Part shown: piece by piece, positions 10,100 to 41,251 of the stretch | How positions within the stretch are numbered: position 1 is the stretch's first letter | How the letters are laid out: every line of letters begins with the position of its first letter | From: an uncultured Alphaproteobacteria bacterium | GTDB lineage: Bacteria; Pseudomonadota; Alphaproteobacteria; Rs-D84 | NCBI GenBank assembly: GCA_944389465.1 | Contig: CALXML010000002.1 | Location: 22,633-86,632 of the forward strand | Length of the DNA stretch: 64,000 nt | Direction: 5' to 3' | Notes under the pieces: model-generated | Told to the model about the DNA's origin: nothing | The model's database searches: none | What the model saw: only the letters and a program-made list of their open reading frames with translations | Made by a program: the position numbers and the translations under genes

Positions 10100-10403
10100 C
10101 GCGACACAGGTGAACAGCCAGCGGCATCGTCAGGTGCGAACAGCGAACAAAACCGGTGGGTTGACTACGCAGTGCCGTGCGACAGCACGAAACCTGTCGG
10201 TAAAACAGTTTAGGATGGGTGGCAGAGCGGTCGATTGCGACGGTCTTGCATACGAGTCAGCAAGGCAAGTGCAACGCAGCCGAGCGCGAACGAGTGGTGA
10301 GCAGCACCGTCAGGTGCGAACAGCGAACAAAACCGTAGGTTTGAAAGACCGTCGGTGAAAAAGTTTAGGATGGGTGGCAGAGCGGTCGATTGCGACGGTC
10401 TTG
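10100..10403 (+). repeat. tandem duplication (period ~155-175 nt) of a GC-rich leader plus the 5' half of tRNA-Ser
   Basis: The block CGTCAGGTGCGAACAGCGAACAAAACCG...GTCGGT.AAA.AGTTTAGGATGGGTGGCAGAGCGGTCGATTGCGACGGTCTTG occurs twice. Copy A carries an extra ~22-nt hairpin insert. Confidence 0.85.
10213..10248 (+). pseudogene. orphan 5' half of tRNA-Ser (acceptor 5' strand, D arm and anticodon stem up to anticodon position 35)
   Basis: 36/36 nt identical to 10368-10403. Identity stops inside the anticodon loop (CTTG|). No matching 3' half follows. Confidence 0.85.
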
Positions 10404-10457
10404 AAAACCGTTGTGGGGGCAACTCCACCGGGGGTTCGAATCCCTCCCCATCCGCCA
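10368..10457 (+). tRNA. tRNA-Ser (anticodon UGA)
   Basis: GGATGGGTGGCAGAGCGGTCGATTGCGACGGTCTTGAAAACCGTTGTGGGGGCAACTCCACCGGGGGTTCGAATCCCTCCCCATCCGCCA. Long variable arm, loop CTTGAAA, encoded CCA. Confidence 0.95.
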
Positions 10458-10987: not shown

Positions 10988-11054
10988 TTGATTTTATTCA
11001 GATGTGTTTAATCAGTTGATTTCAGCATTTCTTTATGTAAAACTGGGAAAGAAT

Positions 11055-11271
11055 CCAATGGGAATTGGGTTCGGGGCTGTCGTAAGCTCGGATTGTGCGG
11101 TTCAACTGCACCGTAATATTTGTATTTCGGACGGTTGTTTCGTTAAAAATATTCTCCCGACTGCATGTCGGGGAGCTGTGCGCTATACAATAGGGGCAAC
11201 CCAAAGGCGACAGAATCAATCACAATCTGATTTACGAACTCCCCGACCGTCAAATTCCTTTGGCGGTTTTT
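11055..11271 (+). promoter_or_regulatory. structured leader RNA with intrinsic terminator, copy 1 of 3 (unassigned family)
   Basis: Hairpin P0 CCAAT-GGGA-ATTGG. P1 GTCGGGGAG (11167-75) pairs with CTCCCCGAC (11239-47) and encloses P2 CTGT/ACAG, P2b GGG-GCAA-CCC and P3 AATCA/TGATT. Terminator ACCGTCA..TGGCGGT plus T run. The same plan occurs at 38729-38960 and 37251-37475(-). Confidence 0.75.
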
Positions 11272-11288
11272 AATTTGCTTAAAAAAAT

Positions 11289-14059
11289 ATGGGGTTTGGC
11301 ATGTCACAGAATACTTTGTCTTGGGAATGCAGAAAATTATTAAAATCAAAATTGTTTAACCAGAAATATTATCTGCAACATTATCCTGATGTTTTGGCGG
11401 ATAATATAAATCCAGCAGAACATTATTTAACCGTCGGTTGGACCAAGGGGTATAACCCATCACAAAAATTTAATACAAATGTATATTTGATGTTAAACCC
11501 AGATGTTAAGCAGGCGGGAATGAATCCTTTGCTGCATTATGAATTATTTGGCCGTCGCGAGAGGCGCGTTATAAATGATGCGCGTATGTCATTAATACTG
11601 GATTCAGGATTTTTTGATGTTGATTATTATATCGCACATCACCCAGATTTGGCCACAGGTTCTGGGTTTAATCCGGTGCTGCATTATTTGACAACGGGAT
11701 ACCAGCATGGCGATAACCCATCTGCAAAATTTGATAATGATGCATATTTAAGTATTTATCCAGATATATTCAGGGGCGGTATGAATCCGCTGTTACATTA
11801 TTTAATGCATGGTCAGGCCGAGGGTCGTTTTGCACCCCCAGTGACGGATATTTCACTGCCGGTGGTTGAATCAGGAACAATATTATTATTATCCCATGAA
11901 TTATCTTTAACGGGTGCACCAATTGCATTATTGAATACCGCACGTGCATTACAGCGACATAAAAAGAAATGCCTGATATTATCCCCCGTGGGTGGCAAAT
12001 TGGAACAAGAGTGCAAAAAATATGGCGTGCAATGTCTGGTTTATCCAAAATTGTTGATTCATTTAAGCCGGCAAGACGCACAAACACAACGTTTCTTTAA
12101 ACAATTTGATACAGTCTTGTTAAATACAATTGTAATGGCAAAATACGCCAGATTTATAAAACCATTGGTCCGGCGGGTTGTCCTGTGGGTGCACGAGGGC
12201 GCATTTGGATACGAAAACGAAACCAGAAACAGCAATTTAAAATCCGATTTTTCATATGTGGATACAATTTATTCAGTGGGGAATTATCTAAATCTTTTAC
12301 AGATAAATATTCAGGCAAATGTTCACAAATTCTGTTATATGGCATAGATGAGATAAAAATCCCCGCCGCACAGAAACGCAGCAATAAATTAGTTTTTGGT
12401 ATTTTTGGCACATGTGATACCAGAAAGGCCCAAGATAAATTTATCCAAGCAGTCAAAAAAATACCACAGAATATACGCGATAATTGCGAATTTAATATTG
12501 TTGGAAAATTACAAGACAATAAATACTGCAAAGTTTTAAAAAAGTTGGCGATTAATACACCTGTACACTTTCTGGGGGAATTAAGTCACCCAGAAACATT
12601 GCGTGAAATGGCACGCACAGATGTGATTTGCTGTACATCACTGGATGACCCAATGCCCATTGTTTGTACCGAGGCAATGATGCTGCACAAGCCTGTAATT
12701 TGTTCTGATAAAACCGGCACGGCCGCATTTATCCAAGATGGAAAAAACAGTTTTTTATACAAAACAGATACAGATAATTTGGCAGATATTATGATACGCG
12801 TATATAAACAACGTTCAGATTTGCATCGCATTGGTAACCGATGGAATGCAGTGTATCAAAAAAATTTCACCCCAAAAATTTTTGAACAAAATATTTTATC
12901 AGTGCTGTTCCGTGAAAAATGCACGATTGTAATGAATAATATGGAATCCAAGGATGTCCCATATTATCAGATGATGTCAGAAAAGTTTCAGACTCATATA
13001 GGTAATAATACTGGAAACATTTTAATTCCAACATATGGGGCACGCAATTTGGATTATGACTTTGAGTATTTGGCACCGTTTGACGTGAAAAATGACAGTG
13101 ATTCATATATTATATTTGCCGCCAATGTGTTAAGAAATAATGTGCAATTGAACTATGAAAAATGGTTTGAATTTCTGGGGCGTTGTAAAAAGCCGATAAA
13201 CATAATGGGATTGGGGGCACAAACAACACTGGAAGAAATGAATCCACGTAAATATGCGAACGGTTTATCATCTGAAATGGTGCGTTGGATACAAATGATT
13301 GCCGACAGATGTAATGTTGTTGGTGTGCGTGGCGAATTTACAGCAGATGTTTTAAAAAGTTTAGGTATAAAAAATGTAGATGCCGTTGGATGTCCAACTT
13401 ATTTTGTAAATGGATATGCGCAACCACAAATAATAAAGAAAAATTTGTCTGAACTGCGTAATGTTGTGTTTCACACTTGTTGGGAACCATACAGTGATTG
13501 GCACGTACAATGGAACAGGGCAGTGCTGGATAATATGTTACAATTTTCAAATCCTGCATTTGTGATACAGTCTGAATTTAAATTTTTGCCTTATTTGATT
13601 GCGAATACAGACCAATTGCAATCTTTGATGGCACTGCAAAATTCAGATATCAGTGCATCTGTTGACGCAATATGCCGGCATTTCGGACTGGATGAATATG
13701 ATGTTGTTACAAATGATAAAATCAGACATTTGTTTCATATATTTTCAGATATGAACAAATGGGCCGAATTTATCAAATCATATGATGTCGCATTTGGTTT
13801 CCGTATTCATGGAAATATTATAGCCTTAAAAAATGGTGTGCCCGCAATTGACATAGCCACAGATTCACGCGTTTATGAAATGTGCGAATTATTCAAAATA
13901 CCATATGTGCGGGTAAATCAGTTTGACAGTACAGAACTGAATTTTAATAAAATTTATGAACAGGCCGATTTTTCAGAAATGAATAAACAATATCCTGTGT
14001 TGTTACAGAACTTTATAAACTTTTTGGATAAAAATAATATCAAACATTTATATAACTGA
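11289..14059 (+). pseudogene. multidomain polysaccharide biosynthesis protein (N-terminal YPDV/NPLLHY repeats, GT4 glycosyltransferase, pyruvyl-transferase-like domain), frameshifted
   Basis: ORFs 11289-12347 and 12185-14059 continue one another (..DTIYSVG | ELSKSFTDKYSGK..) if one G is added to the GGGG run at 12278-12281. The C-terminal GCPTYF and FRIHGNIIALKNGVPAI resemble PS_pyruv_trans. Confidence 0.7.
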
Positions 14060-36614: not shown

Positions 36615-37222
36615 TCAGTTACTGTAATAACAATTTGCAGTATATGTATAATTGCCCGTGGAATCAGAACCTGTCCGACCAGCCGGTAAATAGCAATTGG
36701 TTATGGCCGTACTGCCCGCGGACGACGTGCCCCCATTTGGACACCCGATGTTCCGTTTGTGGTACTGCCGTAATATCCCGCCGCACAGCGATAACTGTAC
36801 GTTGTTTTGCATGTGGTGCTGTCCGAACATGAACGTGTTGCCAGTTGTTGGTATCCTGTGCCCGCGGCCGACCAAGATGTGTCACTTTTGCAATTTGAAC
36901 TGGTACAGGTTAATGCACACGTTTTGTATTGCAATGTGTTTGTTCCACTGCCGCAATTGACAGTGGTTGTTTTGGTCAGCATGGTATACCCGCTGGGGCA
37001 CAATATGCATGTTGTGACGCCAACCAATTCGCTTTCGCCACCAACACATGTTGCCGATGCTCTACCTGAACAATTTTGGGCCAAATTAATGACGCCCGCA
37101 TCATCCGCCGTGCATGCCATGGCGCGACATATAGTAGCACCAGATAAGGCATTTGCTGATATCGGTATGCCCCAGCATCCAATCGCCAAAATTGACGGGA
37201 TTAAATATGATGATTTTTTCAT
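36615..37222 (-). pseudogene. secreted Cys-rich protein with GCC2_GCC3/ephrin-receptor-like repeats, frameshifted
   Basis: Signal peptide MKKSSYLIPSILAIGCWGIPISANA. ORFs 36701-37267 and 36615-36875 join as ..CAAGYYGSTTNGTSG|CPNGGTSSAGSTAITNCYLPAG.. if one nt is added near the CCC run at 36744-36746. The 608-nt span is not a multiple of 3. Confidence 0.65.
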
Positions 37223-37250: not shown

Positions 37251-37475
37251 AAACAAAAAACCACCAAAACCTTGGTGGTCGGGAGTTGGAAAAATCATAG
37301 AAGTTAATGATCCGCTGGGTTTTGGCAAATGCCTGTTGTATAACCAGCACATCCCGACCCAATAAAAGTCAGGAAATGTACGTACATTGACGCACATATA
37401 AAATAACGACACGGACAACATTTCCGCACCGAACTTCTAGGGGATTTTCCAAGTCCCAAAACCAACAATCATTGG
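37251..37475 (-). promoter_or_regulatory. structured leader RNA with intrinsic terminator, copy 3 of 3 (most divergent)
   Basis: Minus strand: P0 CCAA-TGATTG-TTGG. P1 GTCGGGA (37350-58) pairs with TCCCGAC (37278-85). P2 GCTGG/CCAGC, conserved TTATACAACAGG, P2b GGC-ATTT-GCC, P3 ATCA/TGAT. Terminator CCACCAAGGTTTTGGTGG plus T6. Start codon 29 nt downstream. Confidence 0.75.
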
Positions 37476-37594
37476 TTTCGTTTGCCGGTATAGCCGGATA
37501 ATACAGGAAAAACAAGCCATAAAACATTTTACATTTTTTATAAAAAACTGCTTGCATTTATTCCAAGAACAATATAATATATGCTTTGCTCGTT

Positions 37595-37672
37595 GGGGTT
37601 GTAGCTCAGCTGGTTTAGAGCGTCTGCCTGTCACGCAGAAGGTCGCGGGTTCGAGCCCCGTCAATCCCGCCA
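37595..37672 (+). tRNA. tRNA-Asp (anticodon GUC)
   Basis: GGGGTTGTAGCTCAGCTGGTTTAGAGCGTCTGCCTGTCACGCAGAAGGTCGCGGGTTCGAGCCCCGTCAATCCCGCCA. Loop CTGTCAC, encoded CCA. Confidence 0.95.
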
Positions 37673-38378: not shown

Positions 38379-38454
38379 GGCCCCATCGTCTAGAGGCCTA
38401 GGACACCGCCCTTTCAAGGCGAGAACACCAGTTCGAATCTGGTTGGGGCTGCCA
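38379..38454 (+). tRNA. tRNA-Glu (anticodon UUC)
   Basis: GGCCCCATCGTCTAGAGGCCTAGGACACCGCCCTTTCAAGGCGAGAACACCAGTTCGAATCTGGTTGGGGCTGCCA. Close to E. coli tRNA-Glu. G1-U72 wobble. Confidence 0.93.
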
Positions 38455-38487: not shown

Positions 38488-38627
38488 ATTTTGCTGTCTG
38501 CACCCCAGATTTGAACTGGTACAGTTCGTGCGCGCAGTTGGTGAAAACCCGCGGCAGCGGGTTTGAACCTTACCGAGCCGAAAGGGGCCCGCCGCGTATG
38601 CGCGGTGGGAATTTACAATCTGGCCCC

Positions 38628-38670
38628 GCTGCCAAGATAAAAAAACTACCCTTGCGGTCGTTTTTTATTG
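38628..38670 (+). repeat. duplicate of the tRNA-Glu 3' end plus terminator
   Basis: GCTGCCAAGATAAAAAAACTACCCTTGCGGTCGTTTTTT is near-identical to 38448-38490. It is preceded by a degenerate T-arm-like GGGAATTTACAATCTGG. Confidence 0.8.
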
Positions 38671-38687
38671 GTCAAAACAAAATTTCT

Positions 38688-38717
38688 TTGATTTTAATAC
38701 ATATCTGTGTTTATAAT
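38688..38717 (+). promoter_or_regulatory. sigma70-like promoter for leader RNA copy 2
   Basis: TTGATT (38688-93), 18 nt, TATAAT (38712-17). Confidence 0.6.
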
Positions 38718-38728
38718 ATTTTTTAAAT

Positions 38729-38960
38729 CAGTGGGGACACTGGTTTGGGGCTGTCGAAAGCCTTGTATATCCGGTGCAAAACATAGCGGTTCATCGTTAT
38801 CCAGACATTCCTATGGTTTTGCGTCGTTATTTATCCCTGACTTAATACGAAGTCGGGGAGCTGTTTGTTATACAACAGGGCTTGCCCGAAAGCAACAGAA
38901 TCATTGATATACTGATTTTCGAACTCCCCGACCGCCGTGTCTTTACTGGGCGGTCTTTTT
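38729..38960 (+). promoter_or_regulatory. structured leader RNA with intrinsic terminator, copy 2 of 3
   Basis: P0 CAGTG-GGGA-CACTG. P1 GTCGGGGAG (38852-60) pairs with CTCCCCGAC (38924-32). P2 CTGT/ACAG, GTTATACAACAGG, P2b GGG-CTTG-CCC, P3 AATCA/TGATT. Terminator GACCGCC..GGCGGTC plus T5. Start codon 18 nt downstream. Confidence 0.75.
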
Positions 38961-38977
38961 GTATACAGGGGTACACC

Positions 38978-41251
38978 ATGAAATTATTCAGAAAATCAGT
39001 TAAACAAGACAGATGTGCACAATCTGCAGAAATCAATCCAGATATTCAAATAATTCAAAATTCCAAATATTTTGATAAAAAATGGTATCTTAAAACATAT
39101 CCTGATGTTGCGCGTGCCCATTGTAATCCCGCCGAACACTATTTAACATTTGGGTGGCATGAAAACAGACGCCCATCGCACAATTTTAATGGTCAAAATT
39201 ATTGGAATATATATCCAGAATCCAAAAATATGAACCCGTTATTGCACTATGAAAAAATAGGCAAGCAATCTGGTGCGCGTATTGATGGAAATTTCAAATT
39301 TACGAATTTTGAATTAATCAAAAAGACTGATAAAAATATAGTCTTTCCAAAATTTTCTGATATCAAGGTCAGTATAATTATACCTGTATACAATAATTTT
39401 TATTATACCAAGTTATGTTTGCAATCTATATTAAACAACACGCACGGTATTTCGTACGAGATTATAATTGCAGATGATAATTCAACCGATGAAACAAAAA
39501 ACATCTTGCGGCACATAAAAAACATTCGGGTTGTTCGGAACAGTGAAAATCTGCGTTTTCTGAAGAATTGTAATAATGCGGCCACATATGCCCGTGGGGA
39601 ATACCTGTGCTTTTTAAATAATGATACCCAAGTTCAACGGGATTGGCTGAAATTCTTGGTTGATGCCATAGAGAAAGATTCATCCATTGGCTTGGTTGGG
39701 TCAAAACTGATTTATCCTGATGGCACATTACAAGAGGCCGGCGGTATTATATACACTGATGCATCGGGGTGTAATTATGGTCGCAACGATGACCCAGACT
39801 GTATTTGGTATAATTATGTCAAAGAAACAGATTATATTTCTGGGGCATCTATTTTATTACGCAATAAAACGTGGAAAAAACTGGGCGGGTTTGATGAAAC
39901 TTTTGCCCCCGCGTATTACGAAGATACAGATTTAGCATTTCAAATCAGATATAAACTGGGACAGAAAGTAATGTACATTCCGCGGTCTGTGGTTGTTCAT
40001 TTTGAAGGAAAATCAAACGGCACAGATACGACCAGCGGCCAAAAAAAATATCAGGTAATAAACCGGCAAAAATTTTTCAGGAAATGGAAAAAAGAACTGT
40101 ATAAATACCATTGTCGTCCGACAAACAATAATTTTCTGGCGCGCGATAATGCCGTGTCAAAACAATCTGTTTTGGTAATTGATTGGAAAATTTTGTCTTT
40201 TACCAAAGATACAGGTTCACGTGCAACGTGGCAATATATGAAATTATTTCAAAGCCACGGTTTAAATGTAAAATTGTACCCGCACGATTGGTACATAGAA
40301 GGCGATTATTTACAGCAACATTTGGATAATGGCTTTGAAGTGATACATCAAAATTTTGCGGAATATATTAAAAATTTTGGCTCGCAGTTTGACTATGTTT
40401 ACCTGAATCGTCCGAATATTGCGCCAAAGTATATAGACTTGTTACGTAAATACACGCACGCAAAAATAATATATCAGTGTCACGATTTGCATTATCTGCG
40501 CCAATACAGAAACAGAATGTTAACCGATGAAACGACGGCGGTTGAAAAATTGCAGTCTGAAAAAGATATGGAATTTAATTTATTTTCAAAAATGGATGTA
40601 ACCTGTACATTTTCTTTTGACGAAGTGCGTGAAATTCAAAATACAGACGAAACAATAAACGCACGTCAAATACCGTTATACATATTAAATCCAGACGATA
40701 TGGCGCAATATACATACAGTGCGCGCAAACGCAAAAACATTATGTTTGTTGCCGGATTTCAACATACCCCGAACATAGACGGTGCAATTTGGTTTGTAAA
40801 AAATGTATTTCCAAAAATCAAGCAACAGTACAAAGATATAAAATTGTATTTGGTTGGCTCTAATCCGACCGATGAAATATTACAATTGGCATCAAAAGAC
40901 GTCATTGTAACAGGCTTTGTAACAGATGCTGAATTGGATAAATTTTATTCTGAAATCAGACTGGTTGTTGTGCCATTACGAACCGGTGCCGGCGTCAAAG
41001 GCAAAATAATTGAATCTGTGTTTCACAAAGTGCCCGTAATCACAACTGATATAGGCATAGAAGGCATAGATAATTCGTCCAAGCAAATAATTGTGAAAAA
41101 TTCTGCATCAGAATTTGCAAAATCTGTATGCGATTTATACACAAATTATACGGAACTGGATACAAAATCAAAAAATTCAGCACAATTTATTAAGAAATAT
41201 TTTTCTGAAAGTGCCGCAGTAAACGCACTGCGTGATTATATGAAATTATAA
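38978..41251 (+). CDS. bifunctional glycosyltransferase (N-terminal YPDV/NPLLHY repeat, GT2 domain, GT4 domain)
   Basis: Internal ATG 38978. VSIIIPVYNNFYYT..YEIIIADDNSTDET (GT2 DxD region). C-terminal ..VVPLRTGAGVKGKIIESVFHKVPVITTDIG (GT1/GT4 EX7E-type). Confidence 0.8.
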   Translation: MKLFRKSVKQDRCAQSAEINPDIQIIQNSKYFDKKWYLKTYPDVARAHCNPAEHYLTFGWHENRRPSHNFNGQNYWNIYPESKNMNPLLHYEKIGKQSGARIDGNFKFTNFELIKKTDKNIVFPKFSDIKVSIIIPVYNNFYYTKLCLQSILNNTHGISYEIIIADDNSTDETKNILRHIKNIRVVRNSENLRFLKNCNNAATYARGEYLCFLNNDTQVQRDWLKFLVDAIEKDSSIGLVGSKLIYPDGTLQEAGGIIYTDASGCNYGRNDDPDCIWYNYVKETDYISGASILLRNKTWKKLGGFDETFAPAYYEDTDLAFQIRYKLGQKVMYIPRSVVVHFEGKSNGTDTTSGQKKYQVINRQKFFRKWKKELYKYHCRPTNNNFLARDNAVSKQSVLVIDWKILSFTKDTGSRATWQYMKLFQSHGLNVKLYPHDWYIEGDYLQQHLDNGFEVIHQNFAEYIKNFGSQFDYVYLNRPNIAPKYIDLLRKYTHAKIIYQCHDLHYLRQYRNRMLTDETTAVEKLQSEKDMEFNLFSKMDVTCTFSFDEVREIQNTDETINARQIPLYILNPDDMAQYTYSARKRKNIMFVAGFQHTPNIDGAIWFVKNVFPKIKQQYKDIKLYLVGSNPTDEILQLASKDVIVTGFVTDAELDKFYSEIRLVVVPLRTGAGVKGKIIESVFHKVPVITTDIGIEGIDNSSKQIIVKNSASEFAKSVCDLYTNYTELDTKSKNSAQFIKKYFSESAAVNALRDYMKL

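Follow-up and report, generated by a model that had tools for sequence, protein, structure and literature searches.

The 64-kb stretch of contig CALXML010000002.1 analyzed here (the window), from an uncultured alphaproteobacterium of the order Rs-D84, carries three copies of a structured leader RNA. The second of these (copy 2; positions 38725 to 38960, forward strand, ∼235 bases) precedes a gene coding for a fusion of GT2- and GT4-type glycosyltransferases (GTs). Copy 2 is a genuine, strongly conserved folded RNA situated between its own promoter and the glycosyltransferase gene, and each helix proposed for it in a preliminary description of this DNA was found where that description had placed it. 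The locus is organized as follows.

38688 to 38717 (+): sigma-70-like promoter, with TTGATT (38688 to 38693), an 18-nucleotide (nt) spacer, and TATAAT (38712 to 38717)
38726 to 38745 (+): P0, the 5′-terminal hairpin, AAUCAGUG-GGGA-CACUGGUU, with a GNRA-type loop
38748 to 38763 (+): Px hairpin, GGGCU/AGCCU
38754 to 38758 (+): 5′ strand of PKa, UCGAA, forming the Px loop
38765 to 38771 (+): 5′ strand of PKb, GUAUAUC, following Px
38772 to 38826 (+): Pm, a variable middle domain with the stem CGGUGCAAAA/UUUUGCGUCG
38834 to 38841 (+): strand A, UCCCUGAC, alternative partner of strand B and proposed anti-antiterminator
38852 to 38860 (+): strand B, GUCGGGGAG, the 5′ strand of P1
38861 to 38898 (+): P2 hairpin, with a conserved asymmetric internal loop, UAUACAACA/GAA
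38878 to 38887 (+): P2b stem-loop, GGG-CUUG-CCC
38899 to 38917 (+): P3 hairpin, AAUCA/UGAUU, whose loop (38906 to 38912) is the 3′ strand of PKb
38918 to 38922 (+): J3/1, UUCGA, the 3′ strand of PKa
38924 to 38932 (+): strand C, CUCCCCGAC, the 3′ strand of P1
38930 to 38960 (+): terminator-like hairpin, GACCGCC (38930 to 38936), N12, GGCGGUC (38949 to 38955), and U5 (38956 to 38960)
38967 to 38980 (+): Shine-Dalgarno sequence (AGGGGU) and ATG start codon (at 38978) of the GT2-GT4 fusion gene
38978 to 41251 (+): GT2-GT4 fusion gene (Pfam Glycos_transf_2, 1.2e-28; Glyco_trans_1_4, 1.8e-24)

The promoter scores 10/12 in a promoter scan, and a sigma-70-like promoter scoring at least 8/12 lies ahead of 81 of 86 distinct leader copies. 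The −10 hexamer ends 6 to 7 nt 5′ of the first model position in 77 of these 81 scored promoters, and this fixed spacing indicates that transcripts start at P0, in agreement with the start just 5′ of P0 that was proposed from copy 2. Across copies the start codon is positioned a median of 20 nt 3′ of the element and on the same strand, which leaves no room there for a second promoter, and the earlier assignment of the element as the 5′ untranslated region of the 38978 gene holds.

Relatives of the leader were recovered with searches of differing stringency. An exact pattern applied to one genome per species gave 66 loci in 55 assemblies, all except one of them labeled Candidatus Enterousia or uncultured (Alpha)proteobacteria/Rickettsiales, from animal and human guts; strand B was fixed in this pattern, such that its covariation was untestable by it. 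A second scan, of metagenomes, used a pattern drawn from P2 and P3 only and returned 18 true homologues among 120 matches, and an initial exact-pattern scan of viral contigs gave no match. A covariance model built from 46 distinct leaders and searched against 687 kb of sequence identifies 101 copies, including window copy 3 and a more distant subfamily. All 101 are from Candidatus Enterousia/Rs-D84 gut Alphaproteobacteria, with one contig labeled otherwise; taxonomically, Enterousia is placed in the order Rs-D84, and its genomes are mostly smaller than 1 Mb (PMC12306168). Locus L013 (CAVGNU010000003.1), labeled "Bacteroides fragilis isolate," carries a typical Enterousia leader, and this contig is probably mis-binned or mislabeled. 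The other two copies in the window are as follows.

11051 to 11273 (+): copy 1, upstream of a GT4/pyruvyl-transferase gene; 186.3 bits with the covariance model
37254 to 37479 (−): copy 3, divergent; nhmmer E value of 1.1e-13 and 81.4 bits with the covariance model

Copy 1 aligns with copy 2 over its whole length. Copy 3, which is absent from the preliminary description, precedes a minus-strand gene with an ATG near 37221, whose product begins MKKSSYLIPSILAIGCW... and has a signal-peptide or lipoprotein-like appearance.

Covariation was measured on the alignment of 101 sequences, counting as a double change any pair in which both sides are altered. The proposed structure has 96.1% of cells paired, compared with 30 to 47% when the partners are slid by a few columns, and double changes occur in 55 of 64 pairs; these values were matched by none of 500 column shuffles. 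The covariance analysis put forward as a check in the preliminary description thus finds the helices conserved with compensatory changes. Copies 2 and 1 also fold much better than shuffled sequence, at z-scores of −4.35 and −5.65, respectively, and none of 200 shuffles folds equally well.

The 5′-terminal hairpin P0 has double changes in all eight of its pairs and is 96.4% paired. Its core (CAGTG-GGGA-CACTG, 38729 to 38742) is extendable to AAUCAGUG/CACUGGUU, and the stem swap reported between CCAAU/AUUGG in copy 1 and CAGUG/CACUG in copy 2, with pairing kept, is borne out across the family. The loops in homologues are GGGA, GAGA, or GAAA-like. A reading of the AGGGA loop as a CsrA site was considered and rejected, since GAGA and GAAA loops occur elsewhere and the common feature is GNRA; no CsrA-like open reading frame (ORF) was seen in 589 kb of Enterousia-lineage DNA. 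The Px hairpin and the pairings PKa and PKb are additions to the earlier description. Px has double changes in four of five pairs. PKa joins the Px loop to J3/1 with double changes in four of five pairs, all four Watson-Crick types, and 97.4% of cells paired, and PKb joins the strand after Px to the P3 loop with double changes in 7/7 pairs. Neither PKa nor PKb was included in the covariance model behind the alignment, their counts are therefore unbiased, and they are among the best-supported helices of the leader. Pm, which is shorter in some subfamilies, has double changes in 8 of its 9 outer pairs.

P2 aligns full-length to the Rfam model discussed below and has double changes in 7/8 pairs. 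It is of equal length in copies 1 and 2, as noted earlier, although a recount gives 38 nt and not the 39 nt first reported. The P2b loop does differ between GCAA (copy 1) and CUUG (copy 2) on a shared GGG/CCC stem, all three pairs of which show double changes; across the alignment the pair orientation is GC in 52 sequences versus CG in 31. P3 has double changes in 4/5 pairs and appears in divergent copies as GGUUC/GAACC and CUAUA/UAUAG with pairing kept. P1, formed by strands B and C, is 99.9% paired with double changes in 6/9 pairs. P1, P2, and P3 together with PKa and PKb make what is effectively a four-helix junction tied by two pseudoknots. Minimum-free-energy folds draw PKa and PKb within one extended 5′/3′ duplex closed by a 5′ GGGG:CCCC pairing. 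This long-range helix was rejected: the covariation of G26 is with C37 in Px and not with C202, as G26:C37 is replaced by A:U while C202 remains C, and in a divergent subfamily the 5′ G run is unchanged when strand C changes.

The 3′ part of the leader has a strand with two partners. Strand B covaries with both A and C, and the A:B pairing is present in 96.3% of cells with double changes in 4/8 pairs. In L086 and L100, an A-to-U exchange at position 8 of B is matched by a compensating U-to-A exchange in C; in window copy 3 and L147, B lacks one G and both A (UUCCUGAC) and C (CUCCCGAC) adjust; and in the distant subfamily GGUUGGAGG takes the place of GUCGGGGAG as strand B, with A as CUCCAAC(C) and C as CCUCCAACC. 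Judged from these exchanges, both partners of strand B are under selection, and the earlier proposal of A:B and B:C as alternatives is strengthened by divergent copies in which A and C both change with B. The three-nucleotide overlap of strand C with the terminator, GAC, was likewise described for copy 2 and is sustained by covariation: the overlapped base, G206 of copy 2, belongs to P1 as well as to the terminator and covaries with its partner in B and with that in the terminator 3′ strand, and the inner terminator stem has double changes in 3/4 pairs. With B covarying with A and C, and C overlapping the terminator, the arrangement has the logic of a four-strand attenuator.

A hairpin followed by a U-rich tail is present in 85 distinct copies, with at least five U residues within the next 8 nt in 74 of the 85. 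The terminator hairpins have a median energy of −12.4 kcal/mol across copies and −6.5 kcal/mol without the three nucleotides shared with C; the corresponding values for copy 2 are −14.6 and −6.8 kcal/mol, a loss of 7.8. In copy 2, B:C pairing is calculated at −17.3 kcal/mol and A:B at −13.3 kcal/mol. The whole copy 2 fold containing A:B and the terminator is at −86.4 kcal/mol, and that with P1, Px, and P3 forced is at −79.6 kcal/mol, the latter excluding PKa (−4.0) and PKb (−5.3). With the two pseudoknots included, the two states are roughly equal, as expected of a switch.

At Rfam gathering thresholds, tRNAs are the only matches in the whole window. At permissive thresholds, the 3′ half of each leader copy matches sRNA-Xcc1 (RF02221) end to end (model positions 1 to 87), a kinship absent from the preliminary description. 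The scores are 34.9 bits for copy 2 (E value of 1.8e-4), 38.3 bits for copy 1, and 32.0 bits for copy 3, all below the gathering score of 53, which none of 18 Enterousia loci reached; two genuine Xcc1 loci score 79.6 and 86.1 bits. The matching region is a three-way junction consisting of P1 (B:C), P2 with its AUACAA...GAA loop and capped P2b, and P3, and strand B matches the 5′ strand of P1 in the Rfam model. sRNA-Xcc1 was published as an 88-nt trans-acting small RNA (sRNA) from a Xanthomonas integron cassette, where it is a discrete RNA (PMC2996969); it has since been placed upstream of symE in the same orientation (bioRxiv 10.1101/2025.06.18.660453) and, in a later genome paper, upstream of an ORF6N gene in APSE phages.

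Eight genuine Xcc1 loci (L195 to L202), two of them confirmed by the scores given above, were compared with the leader: those of the Escherichia coli Stx phages P13374 and F004, of Aaphi23, Acinetobacter phage 4316, and Moraxella phage Mcat16, of Neisseria gonorrhoeae and Aeromonas caviae, and of a plasmid of Nitratidesulfovibrio, in the Desulfovibrio group. In the six annotated loci (the Neisseria and Aeromonas stretches have no listed genes) the Xcc1 core is 40 to 60 nt 5′ of a same-strand gene coding for Ant, an antitermination protein, a KilA-N protein, or a hypothetical protein. All eight have a hairpin 60 to 125 nt upstream with a loop complementary to J3/1, and a segment 10 to 15 nt beyond this hairpin that is complementary to the P3 loop. 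These pairings of the Px, PKa, and PKb types have the same order and spacing, with different sequences in every locus, and from their presence at all eight loci it follows that the Rfam model covers only the 3′ half of a larger leader. In the reciprocal test, a covariance model built from Enterousia sequences only matches seven of the eight genuine Xcc1 loci (E values of 1.5e-10 to 1.3e-3), and four of the matches span the full 224-position model.

The two groups of RNAs share the order and size of the junction, a G-rich/C-rich 9-bp P1, the AUACAA...GAA loop of P2, P2b, P3, J3/1, the upstream Px, PKa, and PKb elements, a gene just downstream, and a 3′ hairpin overlapping the end of P1. They differ in that the P2b sequence is inverted (GGG/CCC in Enterousia and CCC/GGG in Xcc1) and in that the Enterousia leaders add P0, a strand A beside B (with a 6- to 10-nt loop), and a U tract after the 3′ hairpin. 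This tract is missing from classical Xcc1, in which the core is instead separated from the 5′ domain by a terminator-like element, GCGG...CCGC...GCGG-U7. By these comparisons the leader appears to be a distant, restructured relative of sRNA-Xcc1, and not a member of that family by the Rfam criterion.

The genes that follow the leader are varied. They are always on the same strand, with a Shine-Dalgarno sequence ∼10 to 25 nt past the U tract, and 45 of 79 downstream proteins have signal-peptide-like or membrane-like N termini, with a lipobox in 19 of the 45. Most have no Pfam match; those that do include OMP_b-brl (outer-membrane beta-barrels), YadA_anchor, Opacity, surface-antigen porins, Flg_new (Listeria-Bacteroides repeats), glycosyltransferases, and RgpF, and a few are HTH_3, GIY-YIG, or PLDc_2 proteins. 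What they have in common appears to be the cell surface and accessory roles, the majority being genes for surface or secreted proteins or for glycan synthesis, and not a metabolic pathway. With so many unrelated genes downstream, the leader is not confined to glycosyltransferases, a point absent from the preliminary description. Orthologues of the GT gene illustrate the same point: one that is 89% identical has a leader at 93% identity, and another at 72% identity has a leader at 79% identity with P0 compensated, whereas a GT2-GT4 orthologue at 69% identity (L006 to L008) has no leader and is located 160 nt past a divergent CorA-like gene. The leader is thus not bound to this gene family and has been gained or lost independently of the gene.

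Thirteen copies (L009, L014, L017, L037, L044, L047, L059, L062, L063, L065 to L067, and L188) are 97 to 100% identical from about the −10 box to the terminator, even though they are in different species-level genomes and each has a different downstream gene; the flanks immediately outside are no more than 60% identical. The promoter-leader unit behaves as a discrete module, and mobility, gene conversion, or extreme constraint could account for this. A second feature of these regions is the presence of tRNA genes ∼70 to 600 nt 5′ of the leader promoter, both for the three copies in the window (10368 to 10454, 37595 to 37669, and 38379 to 38451) and in ∼13 of 60 related loci (among them L015, L029, L041, L042, L046, L050, L053, L060, L063, L065, and L069), compared with ∼3% by random placement. 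This proximity may be a sign of hot spots at which leader-gene units insert or recombine.

Taken with its position in the 5′ leader of a glycosyltransferase mRNA, the architecture of the element is probably that of a cis-acting, riboswitch-like transcription attenuator in which the folded junction, with P1 closed, gives read-through. In the native fold, P0 with its GNRA loop, Px, and the P1-P2-P3 junction would be held together by PKa, between the Px loop and J3/1, and by PKb, between the post-Px strand and the P3 loop. In the OFF state, B would pair with the adjacent A and leave C free, the full 7-bp terminator would form, and transcription would stop before the gene. In the ON state, C would displace A and P1 would close, sequestering the first three nucleotides of the terminator stem and approximately halving its stability, such that RNA polymerase could read into the gene. 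The choice between the states would presumably be set by a factor that stabilizes the folded junction, whether a small molecule, an ion, or a protein. The starting points of this proposal are directly visible in the alignment and the locus, namely the helices, the two exclusive partners of B, the terminator overlap, the promoter, and the position before genes. From these we infer conditional termination, the direction of the switch (folded being ON), and the existence of an effector. Features expected of a riboswitch are present in the form of a structured sensor domain with covariation and of mutually exclusive pairings coupled to a terminator (covariation is seen for A:B, for B:C, and for C:terminator), and the cis-acting role is supported by the Xcc1 relatives, which have Px, PKa, and PKb in common with the leader and likewise precede same-strand genes at a short distance.

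Several points weigh against this proposal. The host is uncultured and represented by metagenome-assembled genomes only. P1 and the terminator overlap by only 3 nt, and P1 could fray to allow both to form; the terminator loop is long (∼11 to 12 nt), and many copies have three or four non-U bases between the stem and the U run. The regulated genes are heterogeneous, including surface proteins, GTs, proteins without relatives, and HTH, GIY-YIG, and PLD proteins, with no common metabolic theme, and such heterogeneous sets are unusual for small-molecule riboswitches. The near-identical paralogous leader copies across species could reflect mobility or gene conversion, and the classical Xcc1 3′ hairpin has no U tract, making a termination read-out lineage-specific. 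Cyclic di-GMP (c-di-GMP), a natural guess at a ligand for surface genes, was considered and set aside, with no ORF carrying a GG[DE]EF motif in the 589 kb of Enterousia-lineage DNA, although this is weak evidence.

Other explanations account for parts of these observations. The leader could be a stand-alone sRNA gene of ∼235 nt whose product acts in trans or sequesters a protein, with downstream expression arising from leaky read-through; its own promoter and terminator-like 3′ end, the many near-identical copies per lineage, and the accumulation of sRNA-Xcc1 as a discrete 88-nt RNA in Xanthomonas (PMC2996969) are all compatible with this. We nonetheless consider it unlikely, as a same-strand gene always follows with its Shine-Dalgarno sequence so close to the U tract that no promoter fits between, the two partners of B that are kept by selection make sense for a cis switch, and the PKa and PKb sequences vary between copies in one genome, leaving no common antisense seed. 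It is quite unlikely that the output is on translation or mRNA stability, with the C-rich A and C strands masking a G-rich Shine-Dalgarno sequence in one conformer and P0 protecting the mRNA. The CCCC of strand C can pair with a Shine-Dalgarno GGGG (−7.9 kcal/mol), the Shine-Dalgarno sequences of leader genes are GGGG-only in 35 cases versus GGAG-type in 26, and the 3′ hairpin of classical Xcc1 loci is not followed by a U tract; however, GGGG use does not clearly exceed background (47 against 52), covariation of the Shine-Dalgarno sequence with A or C could not be shown, and the U-rich tail in 74 of 85 copies is at odds with a purely translational output.

The layout of promoter, structured RNA, terminator, and genes that include polysaccharide types also resembles that of processive antitermination RNAs such as HK022 put or Bacillus EAR, in which a folded RNA makes RNA polymerase resistant to terminators, including later ones in long operons, and the Xcc1 relatives in lambdoid prophages lie beside Q and antitermination genes. 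Such a role is decidedly improbable here: the downstream units are mostly single short genes, no EAR or other antitermination family is matched in Rfam at E values of up to 10, and the conserved A:B alternative is that of a regulated two-state element and not of a constitutive polymerase modifier. Homology with the HK022 put RNA was considered and dropped, as the published description of put gave no basis for it. The module-like behavior described above could alternatively mean that promoter and leader form a cassette boundary for cargo shuffling and that RNA structure is secondary. The 13 near-identical copies with divergent flanks, the tRNA genes within 600 nt of all three window copies and of ∼13 of 60 loci, and the occurrence of Xcc1 in integron cassettes fit this picture; yet compensatory changes across subfamilies denote selection on RNA pairing and not on DNA sequence, and no terminal repeats or integrase were seen beside the copies, which makes it very improbable as the primary function. 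Finally, a trp-type attenuator, in which a ribosome on a short ORF covers strand A and frees B, would use the same four-strand 1:2, 2:3, 3:4 layout, and some copies do have short ORFs ending at or in strand A (MVLRRYLSLT* in copy 2). By a reading of the alignment, the start codon, frame, and stop codon of these ORFs are not conserved between subfamilies, the ORF has no Shine-Dalgarno sequence, and its putative start is inside the Pm stem; a leader peptide is thus scarcely credible.

A cis-acting transcription attenuator can also be compared with established systems. An Rfam search of window positions 38600 to 39050 at E values of up to 10 gave Xcc1 and otherwise chance-level matches only, with no EAR, c-di-GMP-I or -II, ANTAR target, or T-box. 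The pbuE adenine riboswitch is an ON switch with a terminator expression platform. The leader resembles terminator riboswitches of this type in having a covarying sensor domain that P1 closes, in the overlap of the P1 3′ strand with the 5′ strand of the terminator, in its location in the 5′ untranslated region directly before a gene, and in its occurrence as several copies per genome. It differs in its 3-nt terminator overlap and its dedicated competitor strand A, and its genes share a surface or secreted location in place of a metabolic pathway. The trp, pyr, and bgl attenuators form exclusive helices 1:2, 2:3, and 3:4, of which 3:4 is the terminator and 2:3 the antiterminator, and the leader has the same kind of chain of mutually exclusive helices. 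In the leader, however, 2:3 encloses a junction of ∼65 nt that two pseudoknots connect with a 5′ domain, no leader peptide is conserved, and no TRAP-, PyrR-, RAT-, or ANTAR-like protein-binding repeats were detected by Rfam.

The C4 antisense RNA that acts on the ant leader of P1 and P7 (RF01695) is a further point of comparison. It shares with the leader two short, separate complementarities between an upstream module and the leader, and an association with control of antirepressor genes in prophages, but there is no sequence or structure match; the Enterousia pairings are within one transcript and one fold, and they target a hairpin loop and a junction strand and not a ribosome-binding site. 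In Stx phage P13374 (L195, 463 to 650), the genes for IsrK and the C4 antisense RNA are ∼900 nt upstream of the Xcc1 leader, clustering three structured RNAs in one regulatory region.

A broader interpretation, offered tentatively, is that the ∼200-nt double-pseudoknotted domain comprising Px, PKa, PKb, and the Xcc1-type junction is the sensor of a new and widespread riboswitch class. Candidatus Enterousia may have co-opted it to govern much of the repertoire of surface proteins and surface glycans, and in other Proteobacteria it may also control antirepressor, KilA-N, and SymE-type genes of prophages, integrons, and plasmids. If so, "sRNA-Xcc1" would be the terminated or processed 3′ half of a cis-regulatory leader and not a classical trans-acting sRNA. 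With three copies in 64 kb, one RNA switch may control a sizeable part of the surface and secreted proteins, and an RNA-based regulon of that extent would be unusually large for a host-associated bacterium whose genome is reduced. The core of the Rfam family and structured cis-regulatory leaders in general are known; for the Enterousia leader and the extended Xcc1 architecture, the searchable literature gave no earlier description.

Two smaller observations concern the glycosyltransferase genes. Leader-controlled GTs share an N-terminal repeat, KYFDKKWYLxxYPDV...NPxxHYLxxGWxEGRxPS (window 38978 to 39200 and 11340 to 11800; also L021 and L162), which had no Pfam assignment in the scans run and is present in several copies in the gene after copy 1. 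The copy 1 gene itself is in two overlapping frames (11289 to 12347 and 12185 to 14059, forward strand), the first coding for the N-terminal part of a GT4 protein and the second for Glycos_transf_1 and polysaccharide pyruvyl transferase domains; there is no obvious homopolymer tract at the junction, and the split is a frameshift, a pseudogene, or an assembly error.

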